Positions 4,248 through 15,311 of a DNA stretch of 15,311 bases are shown here, piece by piece. Position 1 is the first letter of the stretch. The number at the start of each line of letters is the position of its first letter. Below the pieces are notes generated by a model, which had not been told where the DNA came from, did no database searches, and saw nothing but the letters and a program-made list of their open reading frames with translations. The position numbers and the translations under genes are program-made. Source of the DNA: Escherichia coli (GTDB taxonomy: Bacteria > Pseudomonadota > Gammaproteobacteria > Enterobacterales > Enterobacteriaceae); assembly GCF_003334815.1 (NCBI RefSeq), contig NZ_QOWO01000056.1; one strand, 5' to 3'.

Positions 4248-4811
4248 TCATCCCCCTACAACCACTCCCATTCGTTTAAGTATTTTTAAACCTGCTTCCT
4301 GTGGTATCTTTATAGATAAGATCCTGTTTATCTCAGGATTTATATCGAGACCTTCTGTCATTGAAAAATCACAGTGAGACAAATCAGAATGTCTGAACTC
4401 TGTATTATTAAACTCCGAACCAGTAAAATCAGATTTACGAAGGTCTGTTTCCTCAAATAAACAATCACGGAAGCGACAGGATAAAAAAATAGATTTCTGT
4501 AACCGTAAACTAATAAAATCAACAAATCTCAAATCACAATTTACAAGAGAAAAAGTACAGGGAAACATAATGTCTGCTGCATTTACTCCTTGTAATAAAC
4601 AATCTTTGAATTCACAGTCAATAAGTTTAAAAAAATTAAGTTTTAAATTCTTTATTGAGCAGTTTACGAAGCGACATTTTTCGAACTCACAATCGCGAAA
4701 GTTAAAGTTGTCAAGCTGTATTCGTTCAAATATACAATTGTAATAATTTACACCTGATAATTCACTTTCACTGAGGTGTCGTTTTGTGATTCTTTTTTCT
4801 ATTATATCCAT
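4248..4811 (-). CDS. mcbG: Microcin B17 immunity protein McbG (pentapeptide-repeat, Qnr-like gyrase protection), 187 aa
   Basis: Last gene of the mcb operon by position; length matches McbG; pentapeptide-repeat character visible (CIFERIQLDNFNFRDCEFEKCRFVNCSIKNLKLNFFKLIDCEFKDC..). Confidence 0.92.
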   Translation of the reverse strand: MDIIEKRITKRHLSESELSGVNYYNCIFERIQLDNFNFRDCEFEKCRFVNCSIKNLKLNFFKLIDCEFKDCLLQGVNAADIMFPCTFSLVNCDLRFVDFISLRLQKSIFLSCRFRDCLFEETDLRKSDFTGSEFNNTEFRHSDLSHCDFSMTEGLDINPEINRILSIKIPQEAGLKILKRMGVVVGG

Positions 4812-4814
4812 GTG

Positions 4815-5546
4815 TCAGTCTCCTGTTCCCATAACTTCTTTAATAAATGCCTTTTCTGGAGTTGTTTCATTATTGGATTGAATAAAATCACTCATATCAG
4901 AATAACGATTTATACTATTTTTTGAAAGCATATAGAAGGGGATTTTATCTCTTGTTAATTCATCAAAAATATGAGTTGAGAAAAATACCGTTTTCCCGTC
5001 AGCGGTGATCTTATTTATCAGTTCCCATAACATCATTCTGTACTGAATATCAATGCCTACAGTTGGTTCATCCAGTAAAAATAAACGGGCATTTTTGCAA
5101 AGCGTTAGCATCAAAGATATGATAAGCCAACGCTTCTCTCCATAACTTACCGTGTAAGTCCTTTTACGTCTTATTTTATCATAGCGAATGAAAAAATTAT
5201 CATTCCATTTATGATTAAGCTCTGTCCATGCCTGTTTTTTAGTTAACTTATTGAAGCAGCAAATCAAATCAAGAACCTCCTCATTCCTTAGTGTACCTGA
5301 AAGATTTATGACTTGAGGTAGACTTACTAATTCTCCACCAGAGAAATTTCGCTTGAGGGTCCCTTCATAATTACTGACTCCGCCCCTGATAAGGTTAAAA
5401 AGAGTGGTCTTCCCGGCTCCATTTTCTCCAAGCAGACCTATCAACTCTCCCTGCTCAATCTTAAGCGACAGATTATTGAAAACAGGGGGTAAATTTACTT
5501 TATATGAAAAGCTCAGAGAGTTGATTTCTAAAAGAGGTATGGTCAT
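4815..5546 (-). CDS. mcbF: Microcin B17 export/immunity ABC transporter ATP-binding protein McbF
   Basis: Walker A GENGAGKTT, ABC signature-like FSGGE, Walker B LFLLDEPT; 4-nt overlap with mcbE (ATGA) suggests translational coupling. Confidence 0.92.
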   Translation of the reverse strand: MTIPLLEINSLSFSYKVNLPPVFNNLSLKIEQGELIGLLGENGAGKTTLFNLIRGGVSNYEGTLKRNFSGGELVSLPQVINLSGTLRNEEVLDLICCFNKLTKKQAWTELNHKWNDNFFIRYDKIRRKRTYTVSYGEKRWLIISLMLTLCKNARLFLLDEPTVGIDIQYRMMLWELINKITADGKTVFFSTHIFDELTRDKIPFYMLSKNSINRYSDMSDFIQSNNETTPEKAFIKEVMGTGD

Positions 5547-6268
5547 TGAGAACTCCAGACTGGCTCAGTTTTGAAGGTTAGTGCTGAAATAATACTTATG
5601 ATTAACATTATACTATAGAAAAATATCGTCATCAGAGACAACTCCTGGTCTGACTGGAGTATTGTAGAATAGATGGCGATAGGATTAACCTGATTTATCC
5701 AGTAAACGATCCCCTCATTATATTTTAATGATACAATTCCTGATACCATACAGACAGTTATTAATACAGAATAGATAGTGCTGGCTGTTTGGAATGTGAC
5801 TCTGAACGATGCCATGAAAGTGAGTGAAACCATCATAAATGCATTTATGTATATCGATTTTAAAATAATCATTACTATTTGATAATCTGGACTTGCCTGG
5901 AATCCTGTTAGTACGACTAAAATGAAAAAAAACACATACAAAATAGACATGATAAGTGAGGCTATTAATTGAGAACGAATAAATAATAGTCGACCATCCA
6001 TATTATGCACGAAGGTAGCAATAAAACCACTTTCTCTTCTTCCGACCAGATACAGACAGTAATTAAACAGAACAACAGAAAAAGAAATGTAGCCTACAAA
6101 CCATGATATTTGTTTTCCGAGCCATGCTGTATCACCATAATGAAGTTCAATTTCATTGAAATGAAGGAAAAAGAACAACACTGTAGGTGACATAATTGTC
6201 CATATTAAGCTGAAAGGGGTTCTGATTTGTTCCATCAGAAAAATTATCGCCATTTTTAATGTAACCAT
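5543..6268 (-). CDS. mcbE: Microcin B17 export ABC transporter permease McbE, 241 aa
   Basis: Highly hydrophobic multi-pass membrane protein of the correct length, positioned between mcbD and mcbF. Confidence 0.9.
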   Translation of the reverse strand: MVTLKMAIIFLMEQIRTPFSLIWTIMSPTVLFFFLHFNEIELHYGDTAWLGKQISWFVGYISFSVVLFNYCLYLVGRRESGFIATFVHNMDGRLLFIRSQLIASLIMSILYVFFFILVVLTGFQASPDYQIVMIILKSIYINAFMMVSLTFMASFRVTFQTASTIYSVLITVCMVSGIVSLKYNEGIVYWINQVNPIAIYSTILQSDQELSLMTIFFYSIMLIISIISALTFKTEPVWSSQ

Positions 6269-6277
6269 TTGTTATCC

Positions 6278-7468
6278 TTATGGGAATGGTACCATCTTTG
6301 ATTCTCTGACTTTAATACCGTCCCCGGTATGGTAAATTTTATTATTAATGTTTATTGCACCTGAGTTATTCATATGAAGGAAAAAATCAGGGCTTACTAT
6401 TTTTGTGTACCAGACAAGGCTGTTACTTACTCTTTCCCTGGCATAGTAAACAAAAATATTATCAGAAATTTGTTGAAGATAGTTTAATAAATTTGTGTCT
6501 GACGTAATATTTTCCTCAAGCGTTAACTTGACATCATCAGACAGTAGTACCGTATTTTCACACAAATCCGTAAACGACTCGTACTTGTTGCATGACATAA
6601 AGTGACGCTGGTAACTATCAATAATGTCATCATCAGTATAACCGCCAATAAGAAAGTTGTGCAGGCATATATACGATTGCCACAATTCCACTACGGATTT
6701 ACAAAGTGCTTTTTTCAGACTATTAGCATAGGATAATCCGGTACTGTATTTTATTCGACTGATTTTGTTTTTTGTGCCATACAGGGTTAGTACTGCGTGT
6801 CCAGGAGCTCCGGGCAGGGTGATATCGAAAATCCTGATATCTCCTTCTGACCTGAGAGCCAGTAAAATCTCATCTATATGATTTATGCCTGTTACTATTT
6901 CACTGGATATTTCAGTATTGGCTTTTCCCTGTAACCAGTAAAGAAGGAGGGACTGTCTCTCCATAAATTCACACAAGGAACCTTCTATGGCATCGTTCAA
7001 ACTACCATGAAAGCTACATCCGCATGTATCTCTGTCAGGATAAAATTTCAGATCATCTGCAGCGGTTATATTGTCGAGTGCAATTATGACTGCAGGTATT
7101 TCTTGTTGTTCAAGGCTAAACAGATTAAAGGCTCTGACCGTTTTAAATTTATGGGTTATGATTTCATCGCGGGTCAGTGATGAGATCTGAAAAAATGCTT
7201 CGGTAAAAGCCTTTGCAGCAGATGGAGGCATCATCTCATATAATGTTTTCTGACCACCGGTGACTATCTCATTAAAAAAATGACGGCGTTCAAAATATTC
7301 ACCTATTGCCCCCTGAATTGACTTCAGAGTTTCACCGGCCGCGCTGGCTGGTGTAATACGCTCATAGTCCCATATCTGAGAAAACGTTGGCATATTTCTG
7401 TTCAGTTTTGGACTCATGGCCATTGTGGCCGGCCATGCGGACATAAGGTTACTGTAGACATTTATCAT
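6278..7468 (-). CDS. mcbD: Microcin B17 synthetase YcaO-type cyclodehydratase McbD, 396 aa
   Basis: Position and length match McbD of the mcbABCDEFG operon; start overlaps the mcbC 3' end by 20 nt. Confidence 0.92.
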   Translation of the reverse strand: MINVYSNLMSAWPATMAMSPKLNRNMPTFSQIWDYERITPASAAGETLKSIQGAIGEYFERRHFFNEIVTGGQKTLYEMMPPSAAKAFTEAFFQISSLTRDEIITHKFKTVRAFNLFSLEQQEIPAVIIALDNITAADDLKFYPDRDTCGCSFHGSLNDAIEGSLCEFMERQSLLLYWLQGKANTEISSEIVTGINHIDEILLALRSEGDIRIFDITLPGAPGHAVLTLYGTKNKISRIKYSTGLSYANSLKKALCKSVVELWQSYICLHNFLIGGYTDDDIIDSYQRHFMSCNKYESFTDLCENTVLLSDDVKLTLEENITSDTNLLNYLQQISDNIFVYYARERVSNSLVWYTKIVSPDFFLHMNNSGAININNKIYHTGDGIKVRESKMVPFP

Positions 7469-8267
7469 CGTTTACATCTCCAAAAAACTGAACGATCAGT
7501 GGCGCTACGGTCCTCTGATCCAGATTCATTGTTTTTGCTACGTATGAATCGGTATATCCCGCCCATACCCGGTTTTTCAGTCCTATTTGATCTGCAACCA
7601 ATACTGCGTTCTGATACATCGAACCTGTTTCCATTAAGGCCATCCGGTATCCTCTGTAGCGATATTTGAACAAAGCTTTTTCAAAAATAATGCAATAGAC
7701 GAGAGCAAAATGGGGTTTACCAAGACGTTCCGAATCCCCACCGGACAGGCTTCGGTAGAGTGACTGAGTATTACATGTAGCAACAGGTTCCAGTGCCTGA
7801 CTTAGCGGCAGGTAGTGATAAACATTAGTTCCTGCCTGCCAGTTTTCTGTATTTTCAGATAATCTGCATAAAAAAACTTCAATCGGGTACAATGCCCCCC
7901 CAGAAGGATAAGGTCTTCTTACAGAGCCAGGATCAGGTGAGCTGAATGCATTGACTAATAACTTTTCAATAGTACGAATGGAAAGTTTATTTTTGTCGCA
8001 AAAGTTTATTCCTGATGGGAGCCTTTCACGACTAAAATTATGTGATGAGGATATGTTTATTACGGAGCTGAAACCTGGCCTGAAGAGAACTTCTTTATTT
8101 TCAAATTTCTCCAGATGGGCAAGAGGTACCGCGGACACGAAAGTTCGTTCAGCAAATTCGGGGAGGGAAGCAAAGTTACCTCTGACATGAAAATCTTTAA
8201 CAATGGCCAGAACTTCAGGATCTGTGTAATGCGTTACTTCCACTAAAGAGAGTTCGTGTTTTGACAT
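7449..8267 (-). CDS. mcbC: Microcin B17 synthetase FMN-dependent dehydrogenase McbC, 272 aa
   Basis: Position and length match McbC; immediately follows mcbB with a 1-bp gap. Confidence 0.92.
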   Translation of the reverse strand: MSKHELSLVEVTHYTDPEVLAIVKDFHVRGNFASLPEFAERTFVSAVPLAHLEKFENKEVLFRPGFSSVINISSSHNFSRERLPSGINFCDKNKLSIRTIEKLLVNAFSSPDPGSVRRPYPSGGALYPIEVFLCRLSENTENWQAGTNVYHYLPLSQALEPVATCNTQSLYRSLSGGDSERLGKPHFALVYCIIFEKALFKYRYRGYRMALMETGSMYQNAVLVADQIGLKNRVWAGYTDSYVAKTMNLDQRTVAPLIVQFFGDVNDDKCLQ

Positions 8268-8268
8268 G

Positions 8269-9156
8269 TTATCTCTCCAGACAGCTGCAAGCCTGCCAGT
8301 GAATTACCGGCTCTTTACATAAAATACTGGTGATTAAATCAGCGCTAACAGATGACATAAAGTTATCGACATGACTTTTAACCAGTGAAGTACCTGTCAA
8401 CTCCTGAAGTCGCCGTTTTATTAAATGATAGCTGAATCCTCTTTCTGATTCGCCTAAAGCCAATGCTGGTAGTGTCATTTGGTATTTTTTCAGTAACTGA
8501 AGTAAGTTTGCCCAGGACATTTCGTTACGTCTGAAGCTTTTTTCTTCCCTGCTCAGCCATCTCTCTATATGACAAAAATGGCAGGGAGTACCAAGATCAG
8601 GTGAATATACTCCATCTATCCTGAATGACTCCTTTAGGTAGTAGCTTTGGATGAAGGCAACACCAGGGTTACTTTCAAATTTTGAATAGATTCTTTTTAC
8701 AATGTCTGAATGATAGTTTTCGAGATGTAACCAGATTAGTGTTGAATCGCTCACATTAATATTATTATCTTTTATATCAATGATATGAGAAACAAAAACA
8801 CCATCAGATTTCCATTGTTCCCGGGCATTACTGAAAAGATGTGGAACATCGCTTATTATGACTGAGTTTACCCAGAGAGGTGATGTTTTCGTTTTATTTA
8901 TCACGCCTGTGGTAATAAGAAACTCTTTGCCCTTGTCTTTATCAATAAGCGATTCGTCCAGTAGTTTATCAAGGAGGTATTCAGAAATAATACCCTGTTT
9001 GGATCGTAGGCTTTCGAGTACTTTTTTCATTCCCTCATGTGTAATGTCTACTGAAGAAATGTAGGTAATAAGCAGGGTCTTTGTATTTCTGGAAATTATC
9101 TCAAATGGCAGAATATTGATCATATCTTTTCCTTTTTTAATATCAGGGAGCACCAT
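8269..9156 (-). CDS. mcbB: Microcin B17 synthetase zinc-binding scaffold/cyclodehydratase subunit McbB, 295 aa
   Basis: Position and length match McbB; Cys/His clusters (..PCHFCHIERW.. and C-terminal ..HWQACSC..) are consistent with a zinc tetrad. Confidence 0.92.
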   Translation of the reverse strand: MVLPDIKKGKDMINILPFEIISRNTKTLLITYISSVDITHEGMKKVLESLRSKQGIISEYLLDKLLDESLIDKDKGKEFLITTGVINKTKTSPLWVNSVIISDVPHLFSNAREQWKSDGVFVSHIIDIKDNNINVSDSTLIWLHLENYHSDIVKRIYSKFESNPGVAFIQSYYLKESFRIDGVYSPDLGTPCHFCHIERWLSREEKSFRRNEMSWANLLQLLKKYQMTLPALALGESERGFSYHLIKRRLQELTGTSLVKSHVDNFMSSVSADLITSILCKEPVIHWQACSCLER

Positions 9157-9164
9157 GCTCCCTG
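9144..9164 (-). promoter_or_regulatory. Hairpin in the mcbA-mcbB intergenic region sequestering the mcbB Shine-Dalgarno, with the AUG in the loop
   Basis: Minus-strand RNA reads 5'-CAGGGAGC-AUGGU-GCUCCCUG-3': a perfect 8-bp stem whose 5' arm contains the AGGGAG ribosome-binding site, with the mcbB start codon in the 5-nt loop. Confidence 0.5.
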
Positions 9165-9182
9165 AACGGTTAATTCAACGTA

Positions 9183-9380
9183 TCAGATATGTGAACCACT
9201 TCCGCCGCTGCCACCGTTTCCACCACTACAACCGTTGCTGCAACCACCACAACCGCCACCTTGACCACCGCAGCTACCGCCGCCACCACCACCAATGCCA
9301 ACACCTAATGGAGACTGGCGTGATAATTTAAGAGCATCAACGGACAAAACTACACCAAATTCACTCGCTTTTAATTCCAT
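9183..9380 (-). CDS. mcbA: Microcin B17 precursor peptide McbA (65 aa in this copy)
   Basis: Translation MELKASEFGVVLSVDALKLSRQSPLG|VGIGGGGGGSCGGQGGGCGGCSNGCSGGNGGSGGSGSHI is the McbA leader plus Gly/Ser/Cys-rich core. Shine-Dalgarno AGGAG lies 5-6 nt upstream. Confidence 0.95.
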   Translation of the reverse strand: MELKASEFGVVLSVDALKLSRQSPLGVGIGGGGGGSCGGQGGGCGGCSNGCSGGNGGSGGSGSHI

Positions 9381-9635: not shown

Positions 9636-9834
9636 GGTCTGGCAGGGCCGGGGGTGGGTAAGGTGAAACCTGTCAATCAGTACCGGCTTACGCCGGTATC
9701 ATATGCAACAACTGAGTGCCGCCTTCCATGCCGCTGGTGCGGCATATCCTGGTGACGATATCTGAATTGTTATAGATATGTATATACGTAGTAATGACAA
9801 GAATAGGATAAGTTAAAAATTTACAGGAGATGCA
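9636..9834 (+). repeat. Copy 2 of the diverged ~200-bp direct repeat, upstream of the small membrane protein gene
   Basis: See copy 1. Conserved hairpins CCGGCTTACGCCGG and ATGCCGC-NNNN-GCGGCAT (loop TGAA in copy 1, TGGT in copy 2, stem identical). Confidence 0.7.
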
Positions 9835-11031: not shown

Positions 11032-11385
11032 TTAGTTTATTAACTTCATCGCATTCTTTTTTGTCTCCTCATCACTTTTTTGCTCCGATTGTGAAGAGGA
11101 CTGAATGATTGTTGAAGAATTTAAATCGGCCATCTCTTTTGGAAATAGCGATCTCAATATATTCACGATATCTGAAAATGTGGTTTCTTTCGTCAGCAAT
11201 TCACATAAAAGGAAAGGGGCCCTGGGATCTTGTCTGTATAAGGCCAGACCTGCCGTCAGTGCAGCCCGGTTAAGGCGGCTGCGTTCCCCTTGCGGGATAC
11301 TGTCCAGTGTATCACAAACAATTTTATCTGTTTGATTTACATCTGGATTTAGCTTAAAGGCAATGGTTCTGCGCTTGTCCATCAT
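11032..11385 (-). CDS. parR: Plasmid partition centromere-binding adaptor ParR (StbB), 117 aa
   Basis: Translation [50 protein letters not shown].. is recognised as R1/R100-type ParR; TAATG stop/start overlap with parM. Confidence 0.9.
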   Translation of the reverse strand: MMDKRRTIAFKLNPDVNQTDKIVCDTLDSIPQGERSRLNRAALTAGLALYRQDPRAPFLLCELLTKETTFSDIVNILRSLFPKEMADLNSSTIIQSSSQSEQKSDEETKKNAMKLIN

Positions 11386-12347
11386 TAATTACCTATGAGA
11401 TACATACCGTTAACTAAATCATATTGAGAGTTATTGGTTTTAAAAAAACGTTCATCACGAATCTGTGTGTTTTTTTTTACTGCATCGCATATTAATTCTG
11501 CGCCACCACCTATAACCATAACATGAGTATAACCAGAAAATTCATTGAGTGTATTTAATACACGTTGCTCAAGTTTACGAAGTGCTTCATTCATTGCTTC
11601 GGTGACTATTGATATTTTGTTCTCATCATTAATTCGTTGCTTCAGATAGTTATTATCTTTTCTGTGAATAATTATATCGTCAGCAAGATAGCTACTTCCT
11701 TTTGTTCTCGCAAGAGAAAGGGCATCTTTTACTGCAGATGTGACCAGAGATACACCAAGAGATGAGTCTCCGTATATTTTACTGATCCCCGATAATTTCC
11801 CCATTACCTGAGAAATATCTAATGTGGTGCCCCCGAGATCTATAATTAATAAAGAATCTAACTCATCCAGTTCTTGTAGAACTTCATAACCTGCCGGTAT
11901 AGATTCAGGCATGACTTTTACATCTTTTATTGTGAATGCATCCCCACCATTTAATGTAATTTTTTTCCGGAAGTTTGCTTTCTTACGCTCAATATTTTCC
12001 GTATTGGGTTGGTTATTCCTGTCGTAATACTCTGTCAGAGGAAGTGTGCAAACAATATCCACTTCACTTACCGGCAGGCCACTGGTCAGTAAGGCGTGGT
12101 GCACCGCAACGACATTAACGTCGCTGTATTGCCATGCGATATTGGTTGTGACTACAGCATCCGGGCTGATTGGATCAAATGAATACTGTTCGCCGTTCAG
12201 TGTGTAGTTAAAGACCTTTTTATCACCAAAAGAAACTGCCCACTCGCGTTTGAAGCTGTTCGGGCTAATGTGCTGTTTAATTGTTCCGTCGCTTTCCTGC
12301 CACTGTAGTTTGATGTTTGTTGAACCGTCATCAATGAATACCAACAT
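11385..12347 (-). CDS. parM: Plasmid segregation actin-like ATPase ParM (StbA), 320 aa
   Basis: Translation [36 protein letters not shown].. is recognised as R1-type ParM (actin fold, 320 aa); Shine-Dalgarno AGGAG upstream. Confidence 0.95.
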
Positions 12348-12362
12348 TTATAAAACTCCTTA

Positions 12363-12515
12363 TGGTGTTTTTTTTGGTGTTTGTTTGGGTGTGTTTTGGG
12401 TTTTAAGTGGGTTTATTTGTCAAGTTTACCCCATTTTAACTATCAATCAATGATTATTTGTCTTGTTTTGGTGTTTTATTGGGTTTGGCGTGGGTTGTTT
12501 TTGGGTTTTGTTTGG
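12363..12515 (-). repeat. parC: parC centromere: two clusters of five 11-bp iterons flanking the par promoter
   Basis: Directly visible 11-bp direct repeats ending in TGG/GGG (TGGTGTTTTTT, TTGGTGTTTGT, TTGGGTGTGTT, TTGGGTTTTAA, GTGGGTTTATT, then a ~43-bp spacer, then TCTTGTTTTGG, TGTTTTATTGG, GTTTGGCGTGG, GTTGTTTTTGG, GTTTTGTTTGG). This is the known R1 parC architecture. Confidence 0.8.
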
Positions 12516-12524
12516 CGGATAACA

Positions 12525-12860
12525 AAAGATGTCGCCGGGCTCCTCTTTTTACTGCGCCGGCTGACGCGGCGCGGCAGGAACGCTGCCTGTGGTCAGTGTC
12601 CCGCGTCCGGCCGGGCACGGGACGGGCGCTTTTACCGCTCCCGGCTGGCGTCGGTGACAGTGTACGCCAGCTCGTCGCCCTTTTCTGATGAGCGCCCTTC
12701 AAGCCGCTTTCGCGGCATAGCCTTGCCGTCAAAAAGACGACGGCTGCGGTATTCCACGGTCGGCCTGACCCGTTACCGGACGCGGTGAACAGCCCACAGG
12801 CAGCGGGGAACGGGCACCACAGGGGTGCCCTCCCGGTGCCCTCTGTAAGAGAAGGAGCGT
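12525..12860 (+). promoter_or_regulatory. GC-rich, hairpin-dense non-coding region upstream of the methyltransferase; candidate single-strand initiation / ssDNA promoter (Frpo-like) element
   Basis: Numerous inverted repeats (GACGCGG..CCGCGTC, GCTGGCGT-12nt-ACGCCAGC, CGGCA-TAGCCT-TGCCG, GGGCAC-CACAGG-GTGCCC). Its first ~40 bp (AAAAGATGTCGCCGGGCTCC..TTTAC..) recur at 15085. The functional assignment is inference. Confidence 0.35.
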
Positions 12861-12864
12861 TGTT

Positions 12865-13548
12865 ATGTCCCGTTTTGTCCTCGGTAACTGCATCGATGTT
12901 ATGGCCCGTATTCCTGATAACGCCATTGATTTCATACTGACTGACCCGCCGTACCTCGTCGGTTTTCGTGACCGTTCCGGGCGCACCATCGCTGGCGATA
13001 AAACCGATGAATGGCTGCAACCGGCCTGTAATGAAATGTACCGCGTACTCAAAAAAGATGCGCTGATGGTCAGCTTCTATGGCTGGAACCGCGTCGATCG
13101 CTTTGTGGCCGCCTGGAAAAATGCGGGATTCAGCGTGGTTGGTCACCTGGTCTTCACCAAAAACTACACATCGAAGGCCGCATATGTGGGCTATCGCCAC
13201 GAATGCGCTTACATCCTGGCAAAGGGCAGTCCGGCCCGGCCCCGTAACCCTCTGCCGGATGTGCTGGGCTGGAAATATTCGGGCAACCGCCATCACCCGA
13301 CGGAAAAGCCCGTTACCAGCCTGCAACCACTGATTGAGAGCTTCACACATCCGAACGCGATTGTGCTGGACCCGTTTGCAGGCAGCGGCTCAACCTGCGT
13401 CGCCGCCCTCCAGTCCGGACGTCGGTATATCGGTATCGAGCTGCTTGAGCAGTATCACCGTACCGGACAGCAACGTCTGGATGCCGTACAGCGGGCCATG
13501 CAGCAGGGGGCCGCAAATGATGACTGGTTTATGCCGGAGGCTGCGTAA
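12865..13548 (+). CDS. Orphan DNA methyltransferase, beta-class N6-adenine/N4-cytosine type, 227 aa
   Basis: Catalytic motif IV DPPY (..FILTDPPYLVGF..) precedes the SAM-binding motif I (..LDPFAGSGSTCVAA..), the beta-class order. No adjacent restriction endonuclease gene. Shine-Dalgarno AAGGAG upstream. Confidence 0.85.
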   Translation: MSRFVLGNCIDVMARIPDNAIDFILTDPPYLVGFRDRSGRTIAGDKTDEWLQPACNEMYRVLKKDALMVSFYGWNRVDRFVAAWKNAGFSVVGHLVFTKNYTSKAAYVGYRHECAYILAKGSPARPRNPLPDVLGWKYSGNRHHPTEKPVTSLQPLIESFTHPNAIVLDPFAGSGSTCVAALQSGRRYIGIELLEQYHRTGQQRLDAVQRAMQQGAANDDWFMPEAA

Positions 13549-13770
13549 ATGAACTATGCCGGACATGAAAAACTTCGCGCCGAAGTGGCGGAGGTGGCCA
13601 ATGCCATGTGCGACCTGCGTACAACCATGAATGAGATGGAGCGGCGGTACAGCTTTAATGCTGACACCCTGCCGGAACGTCTGGTGCGTCAGACGTTGTT
13701 TCGCGCAAACCGCCTCCTGATGGAGGCATATACCGAAATTCTGGAACTGGATTCCTGCTTCAAAGATTGA
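13549..13770 (+). CDS. Hypothetical small protein, 73 aa (plasmid leading-region type)
   Basis: ORF starts at the stop codon of the methyltransferase gene, suggesting coupling; no motif recognised. Confidence 0.5.
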   Translation: MNYAGHEKLRAEVAEVANAMCDLRTTMNEMERRYSFNADTLPERLVRQTLFRANRLLMEAYTEILELDSCFKD

Positions 13771-13781
13771 GGGGAGAGAGT

Positions 13782-14216
13782 ATGTACGGAACATGCGAAA
13801 TACTCTGCCGGGAGCTGGCAGCAAAGTATCCGGGAGACACGCCGCTGATGCTGGTTATCTGGTCTCCGGAAGAGATTCAGGCCCTTGCTGACGGAATGGA
13901 TATTTCCCTGTCCGATCATGAAATCAGGACCGTCCTGGCGCGCCTGGAGGACATCCCGGAAGACCAGCGGACTGAGTCCGGTATTTCTTCGGGTGCGGCT
14001 ATGGAGATTATCAGCAACGTGAGTGAAAACCGCCAGGTGACCGTCCCTGCTGAACTGCTGGCGTCCCTGATTCAGACCGCTGAACAGGCATTGTGGAAGC
14101 GTGAATGGGCCGCCCGTGATAACGGCCTCGTCGTCCCGGAATGCGTCACCCGCCGTCAGGCGGTGGTTAATCAGGCCCGCGCCCTGCTGAAAAACAACAC
14201 ACACGAAAACGACTGA
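13782..14216 (+). CDS. Hypothetical protein, about 144 aa (plasmid leading-region type)
   Basis: ORF with purine-rich Shine-Dalgarno (GAGGGGAGAGAG) before the ATG at 13782; the track's TTG start at 13767 is less likely. No confident family assignment. Confidence 0.6.
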
Positions 14217-14260
14217 TGTTATCGCCGCCTGCGGGCGGCGATTCAGGGAGACCATTAATC

Positions 14261-15031
14261 ATGAACAAAACGCTGAATGCACTGGTTTGTCGCCACGCCC
14301 GTAACCTGCTGCTGGCGCAGGGCTGGCCGGAAGAGACGGATATTGAACAACTGAATCCGCACTATCCGGGCTGGATCAGCATTTATGTGCGACTGGATGT
14401 ATCCCGGCTGGCGACGTTACTTATCAGCCGCCATGATGGCGTGCTGCCGCCGGTCCTGGCGTCTGCCATGCAAAAACTGACCGGAACCGTGGCGGAACTT
14501 GTACTGTCCGGCAGCCAGTGGCAGGCGCTGCCGGTACTTCCGGCAGACGGAACGCAGGTGTCTTTCCCGTATGCCGGTGAATGGCTGACGGAGGAAGAAA
14601 TCAGGGCAGTTCTTGATGCGGTGCGCGATGCAGTACGAAGCATCTGTTACCAGGTGGCAGACGATGCGCGGCGTATCCGGGCGGCGCTGACCACCACCGG
14701 TCAGACGTTGCTGACCCGGCAGACGCGCCGCTTTCGTCTGGTTGTGAAGGAAAGCGATTACCCCTGCTGGCTTGATGAGGACGACGAAAACCTGCCCGTG
14801 GTGCTCGATGCCATCCTGAACCGGGGCGCACGTTTTTCGGCGGTGGAAATGTACCTGGTCAGTGAGTGTGTGGAGCATATCCTGGCCAGTGGTCTGGTCT
14901 GTGATGTGCTGCGTATACCGGATGAACCGTCCCGTCGCTGGTTTGACAGGGATATTCTGCGGGAGGTTGTTCTGGAGGCACGGGATGAAATCCGCAGCAT
15001 GGCGGATGCACTGGCGAAAATCCGGAAATGA
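14261..15031 (+). CDS. Hypothetical protein, about 256 aa (plasmid leading-region type)
   Basis: Long GC-rich ORF; the ATG at 14261 (MNKTLNALV..) is preceded by Shine-Dalgarno AGGGAG. The track's upstream start at 14216 would overlap the previous gene and lacks an RBS. Confidence 0.6.
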
Positions 15032-15038
15032 TGACGCT

Positions 15039-15062
15039 GGCGGGGAAAAATCTCCGCCTTTT
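15039..15062 (+). terminator. Rho-independent terminator after the 256-aa gene
   Basis: GGCGGGGA-AAAA-TCTCCGCC stem (8 bp, one G-U pair) followed by TTTT, beginning 8 nt after the stop codon. Confidence 0.6.
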
Positions 15063-15082
15063 CCAGCCGGTCCCCGGACAGA

Positions 15083-15311
15083 GCAAAAGGATGTCGCCGC
15101 AGGCTCCGCTTTACCCGGCCATGCGGGGCATGGCCTTGTGGGTTTTCAGTTATGTGGCCTCAGCGTCGTGTGCGGGCTGTGCCGTGCCTCCATCTTAGCC
15201 GGGCTGGCGGGGATGCAAGGGTAAAATGCACGCGGCGGTCACCCGGTCCCTCCTTCCCGTCTGCCGTGATTTTCCGGTCGTTCACCCGCTCAGATTTCGC
15301 GGTCTCACCCT
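15083..15311 (+). promoter_or_regulatory. Second GC-rich structured non-coding region with a motif shared with 12525-12565; runs off the window
   Basis: AAAAGGATGTCGCCGCAGGCTCCGCTTTACCCGGCC aligns with AAAAGATGTCGCCGGGCTCCTCTTTTTACTGCGCCGGC at 12525. GC-rich with inverted repeats; no convincing ORF. Confidence 0.3.

Follow-up and report, generated by a model that had tools for sequence, protein, structure and literature searches.

Class 2 and class 3 single-strand promoter homologues at the methylase operon of a putative F-like plasmid leading region

Introduction

The Frpo/ssi elements, referred to here as class 1, include F ssiD/Frpo1-2 and ColIb ssi1-3, and they work through a hairpin of the transferred strand that recruits RNA polymerase of the host and falls silent once the second strand has been synthesized (Masai and Arai 1997; Bates et al. 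1999; Couturier et al. 2023). In the plasmid pESBL, six operons are induced up to ~500-fold in transconjugants, as measured by RNA-seq (Wen et al., NAR 2025, PMC12672017). The start sites were mapped by 5' RACE, and induction was also seen in F (PMC12672017). Class 2 hairpins are located upstream of klcA and ardA, while a class 3 hairpin is located upstream of the gene of M.EcoGIX, and both classes are conserved in F (PMC12672017). For the class 3 copy of pESBL, the same study mapped a transconjugant-specific start site and named the element ssDNA promoter ssp3. The class 2 element of F, ssp2, is a roadblock that stalls complementary-strand synthesis at the end of its stem until it is unwound by UvrD, and ssp3 is as strong a promoter but does not act as a roadblock (bioRxiv 10.64898/2026.01.09.698686). 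M.EcoGIX, encoded by segment 54782-55465 of pESBL (PMC4288162), is a single-strand-specific orphan adenine methylase with the degenerate specificity SAY (PMC7736820), and it protects incoming plasmids from restriction (PMC4288162, PMC7736820). The promoter elements time anti-restriction expression in the first minutes after entry of a resistance plasmid, and they therefore bear on plasmid host range.

Here, we analysed a stretch of 15,311 nucleotides from Escherichia coli (contig NZ_QOWO01000056.1), hereafter referred to as the window. It contains two GC-rich elements, E1 and E2, located at either end of a methylase operon, and we describe their homology, synteny, folding, covariation and strand bias, as well as the promoter boxes of E2. 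Both promoter elements and the methylase have already been described in near-identical plasmids. The value of the window lies in correct annotation, E1 being a regulatory DNA element.

Results

Segment 12524-15311 of the window aligned collinearly to segment 53825-56619 of F with an identity of 89.9%, and at least 5000 plasmid records match it. F, pESBL and pO165 share the gene order of the window, and the genes point toward oriT, as they do in the leading region of F. By this collinearity, which agrees with an earlier proposal that the segment comes from a plasmid leading region, 12524-15311 is assigned to the oriT-distal part of the leading region of an F-like (IncFII-type) plasmid. In F, oriT is located ~12 kb beyond the matched region, and the window itself ends before oriT. 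From the collinearity with F, and from the strand to which ssiD maps there, we infer that the transferred strand is the minus strand of the window; because oriT lies outside the window, this assignment is one of synteny. The features of the segment are summarized in Table 1.

Table 1 Features of the leading-region segment of the window.
Feature	Coordinates	Strand	Basis or remark
E1, class 3 single-strand promoter (ssp3) homologue, upstream of M.EcoGIX orthologue	12524..12864	-	homology, fold, covariation
Start motif AAAGATGTCGCCGGGCTCCTCTTT, common to E1 and E2	12525..12548	+	upstream module edge
Long stem of E1, 3' arm (helices 4-6 of alignment A4)	12581..12621	-	pairs with 12769-12805
Conserved mismatch bubble GACACT in long-stem 3' arm	12600->12595	-	alignment A4
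Branch P3 (helices 10-12), 12691-12697 with 12624-12630	12624..12697	-	covariation
Branch P1 (helices 7-9), 12748-12768 with 12699-12722	12699..12768	-	covariation
Long stem of E1, 5' arm, would-be template arm; bubble 12786-12791	12769..12805	-	fold and covariation
Small hairpin GGGCACC...GGTGCCC just 5' of ribosome-binding site	12812..12830	-	helix 2
Orphan N6-adenine DNA methyltransferase, 227 aa, M.EcoGIX orthologue (YfeA of F, YfbB of R64)	12865..13548	+	homology
YubE-family gene, 73 aa	13549..13770	+	synteny with F and pESBL
DUF1380 gene, 144 aa	13782..14216	+	DUF1380 annotation in F, pESBL, pO165
Intergenic hairpin, perfect 9 bp, ATCGCCGCC-TGCG-GGCGGCGAT	14221..14242	.	read from sequence
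yffB/YchA-like gene, 256 aa	14261..15031	+	synteny with F
GC-rich hairpin then TTTT, probable methylase-operon terminator	15039..15063	+	read from sequence
E2, oriT-distal part of class 2 single-strand promoter (ssp2)	15086..15311	-	homology
Class 2 boxes TTGCAT (15218->15213), 15-nt spacer, TAAGAT (15197->15192)	15192..15218	-	class 2 alignment

The methylase has an amino-acid identity of 96% to M.EcoGIX of pESBL, from which it differs by nine substitutions, and the two enzymes are alike in their 227 residues and their DPPY motif (LTDPPY in the alignment). It matches the family NF010253 (PRK13699) with 492.6 bits, for a cutoff of 244. No restriction enzyme partner was found near its gene, whose neighbours are parMR, yubE, DUF1380 and yffB; in this it is like M.EcoGIX and M.BceJIII (Fomenkov et al. 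2020; Yamaichi et al. 2015), which are also leading-region enzymes with no partner nuclease. No relatives of the methylase were found among viral contigs. By analogy, the enzyme may share the single-strand specificity of M.EcoGIX and its protection of the plasmid upon entry. The preliminary description of this DNA spoke of an orphan methyltransferase followed by three small genes. The methylase and three genes are present, but the last of them is too long to be called small. Homologues of the YubE-family gene in diverged loci carry PF27407. Near 14770, the window agrees with a published primer, 'yffB up F', at 19 of its 20 positions. F and pESBL have an equivalent of the probable terminator hairpin ahead of their start motif; a consensus scan did not list the terminator hairpin 15039-15063. 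A scan of 12300-15311 for consensus sigma-70 promoters gave zero sites, so that no duplex promoter was found 5' of the operon.

E1, which ends at the ATG of the methylase gene (12865), has identities of 95.9% to its F counterpart and of 96.8% over 340 nt to that of pESBL, both located directly 5' of an orthologous methylase gene at the head of the same operon. In these copies, as in E1, a large hairpin is formed on the template strand. The context of E1 differs, since the copies of pESBL and pO165 follow a DUF1281 gene and a terminator whereas E1 directly abuts the parMR centromere parC of the studied plasmid. The GC content is ~0.64 in E1 and 0.39-0.42 immediately upstream. By homology, E1 is assigned to class 3 (ssp3) and not to Frpo/ssi class 1, and its activity as a promoter on ssDNA, silent as duplex, is predicted from the pESBL and F homologues.

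The reported abundance of inverted repeats at 12525-12860 exceeds chance. A repeat search revealed arms of 30 nt, 12581-12610 and 12776-12805, which are 83% complementary, plus nested palindromes. Folded as ssDNA, the 341 nt of E1 gave -99.3 kcal/mol on the minus strand (z = -6.07, a value matched by none of 100 shuffles) and -95.3 kcal/mol on the plus strand (z = -4.96). A large stable fold is found, and it is stronger on the minus strand. In seven of eight comparisons, E1 is conserved to the same degree as the neighbouring coding sequence or more strongly.

PLSDB searches were dominated by >5000 near-identical records, and diverged homologues were gathered through protein homologues and their contigs. 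The class 3 alignment (A4) has nine sequences, four of them near-identical. In its consensus structure, 96.7% of cells are paired, compared with 36-45% in slid controls, and 20 pairs are changed on both sides, compared with 0-4 in the controls; none of 500 shuffles did as well as the alignment. The structure can be described as a long stem that leads to two branches, P1 and P3. In the long stem, 9 of 31 pairs are changed on both sides. Branch P1 is capped by a small covarying hairpin [12725-12744], has compensatory changes in its helices (columns 107/164, 120/148 and 129/140) and carries the segment TTGA (12702->12699), conserved in eight of nine homologues, the TT being absent in L133. Branch P3 ends in a local hairpin formed by 12664-12672 and 12643-12651, and the loop of this hairpin opens with the conserved segment TA(A/C)A(C/A)T (12664->12659). 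The small hairpin that adjoins the ribosome-binding site has seven pairs, four of which covary, and F has a compensatory change from A-T to G-C there. A minimum-free-energy helix of 12 bp, 12731-12742 with 12673-12684, was rejected, as it is not conserved in the diverged homologues. A mini-hairpin GCCGC-GAAA-GCGGC as apex is disfavoured by a Pectobacterium change that breaks it but finds its compensation in the long-range pairing.

In all nine class 3 homologues, the better fold is that of the minus strand. The consensus structure has 59 G.T versus 6 A.C cells, a count that is biased since the prediction of the structure used the minus strand. The consensus energy is -64.9 for the minus strand versus -55.5 for the plus strand, a comparison that corrects for this bias only in part, given also the four near-identical sequences among the nine.

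No contiguous -35/-10 pair was found on either strand of E1 by the consensus scan and a box search, and only composite models can be proposed. In model A, the -35 box would be TTGACC, composed of TTGA at a helix end (12702-12699) and of CC at the start of the long stem (12621-12620). The -10 candidate of this model would be the conserved mismatched segment xAxAxT (GACACT, 12600-12595), located ~17 helical steps on, and transcription would be predicted to start near 12798. In model B, the P3 loop segment at 12664->12659 is an alternative -10 candidate, and transcription would be expected to start near 12655-12662. The segment TTGACG was dropped as a -35 box, being unconserved among diverged homologues.

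The second GC-rich region that had been noted after the terminator corresponds to E2, which is cut by the end of the window. The window holds its non-template arm and part of its apex, while the template arm and the klcA/ardB gene are located beyond 15311, and 61 of the 72 consensus pairs have a partner outside the window. Over 227 nt, E2 has identities of 92.5-93% to the klcA-upstream elements of F and pESBL; it is also homologous to the ardA-upstream element of pESBL, and it aligned to the candidate Frpo'4 (Samuel et al. 2024) with 82% identity over 228 nt. The candidates Frpo'4, Frpo*1 and Frpo*3 of that study are of the same kind as class 2. With F ssp2 and the pESBL klcA and ardA hairpins, E2 shares its boxes TTGCAT-N15-TAAGAT, the start motif and the place after yffB, but it is partial, lacking the template arm and the anti-restriction gene inside the window. 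In the class 2 alignment of 14 sequences, 91.8% of cells are paired, compared with 32-37% in controls, and 35 pairs are changed on both sides, compared with 5-7. The pattern TTGnnn-N15-TAnnnT with a mismatched -10 is found in all 14 sequences and also in the three candidates of Samuel et al. The -35 box is in duplex, and three bases of the -10 box are in a conserved bubble (columns 276-278). A check for -35/-10 boxes thus gave a clear answer for the class 2 element, and for class 3 it yielded only the proposed composite model. By sequence homology, E2 is assigned to class 2 (ssp2) and not to Frpo/ssi class 1. Covariation-supported multi-branch hairpins are kept in both elements among plasmids of Edwardsiella, Pectobacterium, Serratia, Klebsiella and Erwinia, which is new here, as are the strand bias of the E1 fold and the box pattern kept throughout class 2.

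Discussion

With a probability of about 0.9, E1 and E2 are ssDNA promoters in the leading region of an F-like plasmid, which front the methylase operon and the one that follows it. Upon conjugative transfer, the strand to enter the recipient as ssDNA would be the minus strand of the window, and E1 would fold on it into a large hairpin with several branches. This hairpin may serve the sigma-70 RNA polymerase of the host as a class 3 promoter (ssp3), so that the methylase, yubE, DUF1380 and yffB genes would be transcribed before the complementary strand is synthesized. The M.EcoGIX orthologue could then methylate adenines of the entering single strand and blunt restriction. Double-stranding would remove the hairpin and switch the promoter off. 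Past the operon terminator, E2 would open the next module as the ssp2 of the klcA/ardB anti-restriction operon. Promoter activity, start sites, methylase activity and protection are taken from the literature on near-identical sequences and are expected here by analogy. The earlier suggestion that ssDNA hairpin promoters drive early genes is backed by these experimentally shown homologues (PMC12672017). The analysis adds modest support to the published experiments through the covariation in both classes, the folding bias toward the transferred strand, the conserved TTG-N18-TA-N3-T of class 2 and the replacement of class 3 by class 2 before the methylase.

The preliminary description assigned the elements to the Frpo/ssi family. 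E1 and E2 follow the same principle as class 1, are placed like it upstream of leading-region genes, and have their long hairpins on the same strand as ssiD; both ssiD and ssiE map to the strand of F that corresponds to the transferred strand of the elements. However, a transferred-strand hairpin 5' of a leading-region operon is common to classes 1, 2 and 3 and does not discriminate between them. The sequences themselves speak against this assignment. [quoted passage not shown] The hairpin architecture is also different, class 1 having an A+T-rich apex that E1 and E2 lack. Real class 1 copies in the same plasmids sit elsewhere, upstream of ssb and ygeA, and the hairpins of klcA/ardA and of M.EcoGIX are described as non-homologous to ssi1-3 (Wen et al., PMC12672017). 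True membership of E1 and E2 in class 1 is thus extremely improbable. Deriving class 1 Frpo boxes from sequence as a guide to promoter orientation gave an ambiguous outcome. It is less improbable, though still unlikely, that the primary role of the elements is DNA-level control of replication, as a priming site or roadblock on the incoming strand, with transcription secondary. Frpo transcripts are reported to prime DNA synthesis (Masai and Arai), and in F conversion is stalled where the stem of ssp2, the homologue of E2, ends, so that UvrD is needed. The invariant core of class 3 resembles part of F ssiE (80% over 30 nt), a resemblance that, with E = 0.096, is not statistically significant. 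Against such a primary role, ssp3 is reported to be without roadblock activity (bioRxiv 10.64898/2026.01.09.698686), and E1 and E2 are located exactly in promoter position before operons induced upon entry (PMC12672017). The replication-control and promoter roles are not mutually exclusive.

Two further alternatives concern E1 as RNA or as coding sequence. Its conserved structure could act not in the DNA but in the transcript, as a 5' leader controlling translation or mRNA stability. The covarying hairpin at 12812-12830 would lie inside the transcript under model A, and the upstream-edge motif holds an anti-Shine-Dalgarno-like CTCC. However, no duplex promoter able to transcribe the whole of E1 was found upstream, the antisense (minus) strand is the one that forms the more stable structure in all nine homologues, a scan of the whole window with Rfam gave zero family matches, and the published start sites (PMC12672017) fall within the hairpins; we consider a role as mRNA leader very unlikely. 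The idea that E1 is the coding sequence of a small protein, an annotation given to this stretch in F (53784-54089) and pESBL (54394-54705), has the lowest probability of all, close to nil. Open frames do run over E1 [12381-12788 and 12458-12688], and many records carry 'hypothetical protein' calls there. However, the ORF of F begins upstream of the homology boundary, so that the window lacks its start codon, and single-base indels inside the ORF separate F from pESBL. In four of five diverged class 3 loci (L125, L126, L130 and L131) no gene is called over the element, and in L128 the nearest gene call ends ~50 nt upstream. Substitutions in E1 track base-pairing, not codon positions. Thousands of records have a 'hypothetical protein' call over E1 that is very likely spurious.

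The start motif, written AAGGATGTCGC in the form common to classes 2 and 3, marks the point where homology with F begins. The pattern GATGTCGCCG-N0-2-GGCTCCNCTTT occurs in the window only at 12528 and 15090, with 0 occurrences expected by chance. The motif reported earlier as shared by the two GC-rich regions is real, but it is shorter than the ~40 bp then given: ~27-30 bases align, interrupted by two small indels, and E1 and E2 have no similarity past it. A scan of a genome collection (298 Gb) for GATGTCGCCGN{0,4}GGCTCC, with 16 specified bases, gave chance matches in GC-rich genomes only. Possible, although doubtful, is a joint reading of E1 in which the class 3 -35 box is assembled across a three-way junction only when the strand is folded, while the start motif and the ssiE-like invariant core have a role of their own; these two would then serve, for example, in priming or as a stop point of second-strand synthesis. 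Of 12 regions upstream of a methylase gene, diverged genera included, 11 have retained the motif. Erwinia and Salmonella plasmids have a class 2 element in place of class 3 before the methylase, and the comparison shows that the promoters are exchangeable modules bounded by the conserved motif.

Setting of the gene block

From 12524 to its end, the window aligns with positions 53825-56619 of plasmid F (NC_002483) at 89.9% identity, and the block is present in at least 5000 plasmid records, mainly from conjugative plasmids of Escherichia, Klebsiella, Salmonella and Shigella. The methylase is 96% identical to M.EcoGIX of pESBL and reaches 492.6 bits against the NCBIfam profile NF010253 (cutoff 244); M.EcoGIX is the pESBL gene at 54782-55465 (table, PMC4288162). 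F, pESBL-EA11 and pO165 have a common gene order of methylase, 73-aa gene, DUF1380 gene and ~258-aa gene, followed by a long intergenic region and a KlcA/ArdB-type anti-restriction gene, with ssb, psiB, psiA and oriT farther along. The block is therefore the oriT-distal part of the leading region. Direct repeats that look like the parC centromere are joined directly to the first hairpin element, E1, in the window, whereas in pO165, pESBL and many others the two are separated by a DUF1281 gene, a small ORF and a terminator.

Features of the block and its left flank
Feature	Coordinates	Strand	Remark
parM/parR (stbA/stbB)	11032-12347	minus	320 and 117 aa; left of E1
T/G-rich direct repeats	12350-12520		spacing 11 bp, or 11-12 bp over 12357-12519; right after parR/parM
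Hairpin element E1	12524-12864		directly upstream of methylase gene
Methyltransferase	12865-13548		227 aa
First gene after methylase	13549-13770
Second gene after methylase	13782-14216
Third gene after methylase	14261-15031
GC hairpin and T run	15039-15063
Hairpin element E2	15086-15311		ends at window edge
E2 -35 box, TTGCAT	15218->15213	transferred	class 2
E2 -10 box, TAAGAT	15197->15192	transferred	class 2

A perfect 9-bp hairpin, ATCGCCGCC-TGCG-GGCGGCGAT, lies at 14221-14242 between the DUF1380 and yffB-like genes. The ORF listing starts yffB at ATG 14216, across this hairpin, and the true start is probably elsewhere.

Identity of the two elements

The GC content of E1 is about 0.64, compared with about 0.4 just upstream. 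Inverted repeats are abundant, the longest having 30-nt arms (12581-12610 and 12776-12805). As single-stranded DNA, the minus strand, by collinearity with F the presumed transferred strand, folds with -99.3 kcal/mol (z = -6.07; none of 100 shuffles was equally stable) and the plus strand with -95.3 kcal/mol (z = -4.96). The dense inverted repeats of the preliminary description are confirmed. The motif that it had placed at the start of both elements is real, with a length of ~27-30 bases and not 40: GATGTCGCCG-N0-2-GGCTCCNCTTT was found at 12528 and 15090 only (0 expected by chance), and this motif is also the exact point from which the window and F are homologous.

E1 is 95.9% and 96.8% identical to the sequences directly upstream of the methylase gene in F and pESBL, respectively. 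E2, incomplete as it ends at the window edge, shares 93% identity with the element that precedes klcA in F and pESBL, and 82% over 228 nt with the candidate Frpo'4 (Samuel et al. 2024); the element in front of ardA in pESBL is a further homologue. Wen et al. (NAR 2025, PMC12672017) sequenced RNA after mating with the donors eliminated and found six pESBL operons induced up to ~500-fold; for each, 5' RACE located the start site and a large hairpin was predicted upstream. Three classes were distinguished: ssi1-3 and Frpo form class 1, the hairpins that precede klcA and ardA form class 2, and the one that precedes M.EcoGIX is class 3. According to the same study, F has conserved versions of classes 2 and 3, and its two corresponding operons were likewise induced. 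The names ssp1, ssp2 and ssp3 were given in a 2026 preprint (bioRxiv 10.64898/2026.01.09.698686), which places F ssp2 between yffB and yfgB (ArdB). Because of these identities, E1 is an ssp3 homologue and E2 the first part of ssp2. The mechanism first proposed, that of Frpo/ssi-type hairpin promoters, is supported, but the family needs correcting: membership of class 1 is highly improbable, since BLAST with F ssiD, ssiE and ColIb ssi1-3 found no significant match in either element. In F, ssiD lies upstream of ygeA and of ssb, on the minus strand, the strand of the E1 fold. The elements were already known from the 2025-2026 papers; our comparative evidence and junction model are minor additions.

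Conservation of structure

Methylases of 76-86% identity gave nine loci, from Edwardsiella, Pectobacterium, Erwinia, Serratia, Klebsiella, Salmonella and E. coli, and a class 3 element precedes the methylase in six of them. These six were aligned with the window, F and pESBL (n = 9) on the transferred strand. The RNAalifold structure could be described as a long stem leading to a three-way junction with two branches. In it, 96.7% of cells pair, compared with 36-45% when partners are slid by 1-3 columns, and 20 pairs are altered on both sides (0-4 in the slid controls); none of 500 shuffles reached the observed values. For class 2 (14 sequences), 91.8% of cells pair against 32-37% in slid controls, and 35 pairs are altered on both sides against 5-7. 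In seven of eight comparisons, the nucleotide conservation of E1 equals or exceeds that of the methylase gene next to it (95.9% vs 90.9% in F; 81% vs 74% in Serratia S1B). The motif AAGGATGTCGC (12525-12535 and 15087-15097) marks the upstream edge of class 3 and class 2 elements alike, and is kept in Erwinia, Serratia and Edwardsiella loci despite divergence of much of each element.

At three loci (L127:3225-3503, L129:2789-3061, L132:3160-3503), from Erwinia amylovora, E. mallotivora and one Salmonella, a class 2-like element with TTG-N18-TA-N3-T and a GCCCGGCTA core replaces class 3 before the methylase; promoter modules therefore appear interchangeable between operons.

Strand and function

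In each of the nine class 3 homologues the minus strand gave the more stable fold with DNA energy parameters, the margin being 0.5-9.9 kcal/mol; four of the nine sequences are close relatives. The consensus energies are -64.9 (minus) and -55.5 (plus). The consensus structure has 59 G.T and 6 A.C cells, a count skewed by the use of the minus strand for structure prediction. The preference for the minus strand is what would be expected if the transferred strand is the one that folds, and it speaks against an mRNA leader, a role that is very unlikely for E1 as there is also no upstream duplex promoter. Still less probable is a protein-coding ORF across E1: the start codon is missing, indels break the frame, and most diverged loci have no gene call there. 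A 'hypothetical protein' is annotated over the class 3 element in F (53784-54089), pESBL (54394-54705) and most of the plasmid records listed among the matches; our analysis indicates that these are spurious ORFs over a structured non-coding element. Replication control is unlikely as the primary role of the elements, and plausible as an added function. It has been shown for ssp2, where complementary-strand synthesis stalls in F until UvrD acts, but ssp3 showed no stalling and has no reported roadblock activity (bioRxiv 10.64898/2026.01.09.698686). For class 3 there is a weak hint in a core that resembles ssiE (80% over 30 nt).

Promoter boxes

The promoter-forming hairpin with -35 and -10 boxes that had been anticipated is found in class 2; no contiguous -35/-10 pair was found in the class 3 element. 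All 14 class 2 sequences, and three candidates of Samuel et al., carry TTGnnn-N15-TAnnnT, on the 3' arm of the transferred strand in the 14. In the predicted structure the -35 is in duplex, three -10 bases are in a conserved bubble, and the spacer has extra bases on the template side. In E2, 61 of 72 pairs cross the window end, the template arm lying beyond it.

For class 3, two models could be built. In the junction model, the branch P1 (12699-12768) would stack on the long stem, so that TTGA (12702-12699) and CC (12621-12620) form TTGACC. A spacing of 18-19 nt on that strand and 15 nt on the template strand would lead to a putative -10, (G/C)A(C/G)ACT, in a conserved bubble (12600-12595 opposite 12786-12791), and transcripts would begin near 12798 with a ~67-nt leader. 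This geometry is constant across diverged sequences. Alternatively, TTGAAG may be used with a hexamer from the loop of a local hairpin, TA(A/C)A(C/A)T (12664-12659); here the linear spacing varies (29-32 nt) and the polymerase would have to run round the loop.

In the most likely mechanism, the minus strand would enter first, from oriT, and E1 would fold on it and recruit host RNA polymerase. The methylase operon would be expressed from single-stranded DNA and the methylase would modify the entering strand, until second-strand synthesis melts the hairpin and turns the promoter off. E2 would start the next module, serving the anti-restriction operon. In this scheme the activity of the promoters, the specificity of the methylase and its protective effect are taken from published work on near-identical sequences.

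Other features

Hairpins TATGCCGC-loop-GCGGCATGGAAGG at 9713-9749 and 12694-12722 (both minus) resemble positions 30-67 of ssiE, a single-strand initiation sequence of F (E = 1.9e-4 and 0.096, respectively); the latter forms the core that is invariant in class 3. Two clusters of 280-aa proteins (P0116 and P0117; 63-72 contigs) join a PsiB domain (PF06290) to the C-terminal 79% of the methylase, a pattern suggesting that fusions of psiB with the methylase gene have arisen repeatedly by deletion inside leading regions. The start of the window falls inside an IS21-like element (1-1174) whose IstB helper ATPase (NF038214, 3.2e-90) is encoded by ORF 374-1174. A low-GC block (30-40%) at 4248-9380 (minus) has a complete microcin B17 operon, comprising McbB (TIGR04424, 1.8e-85), SagB-type McbC, YcaO-type McbD, McbE, the ABC ATPase McbF and the pentapeptide-repeat McbG, with a 65-aa ORF (9183-9380) in the mcbA position; the window is therefore from a pMccB17-like F-type plasmid.
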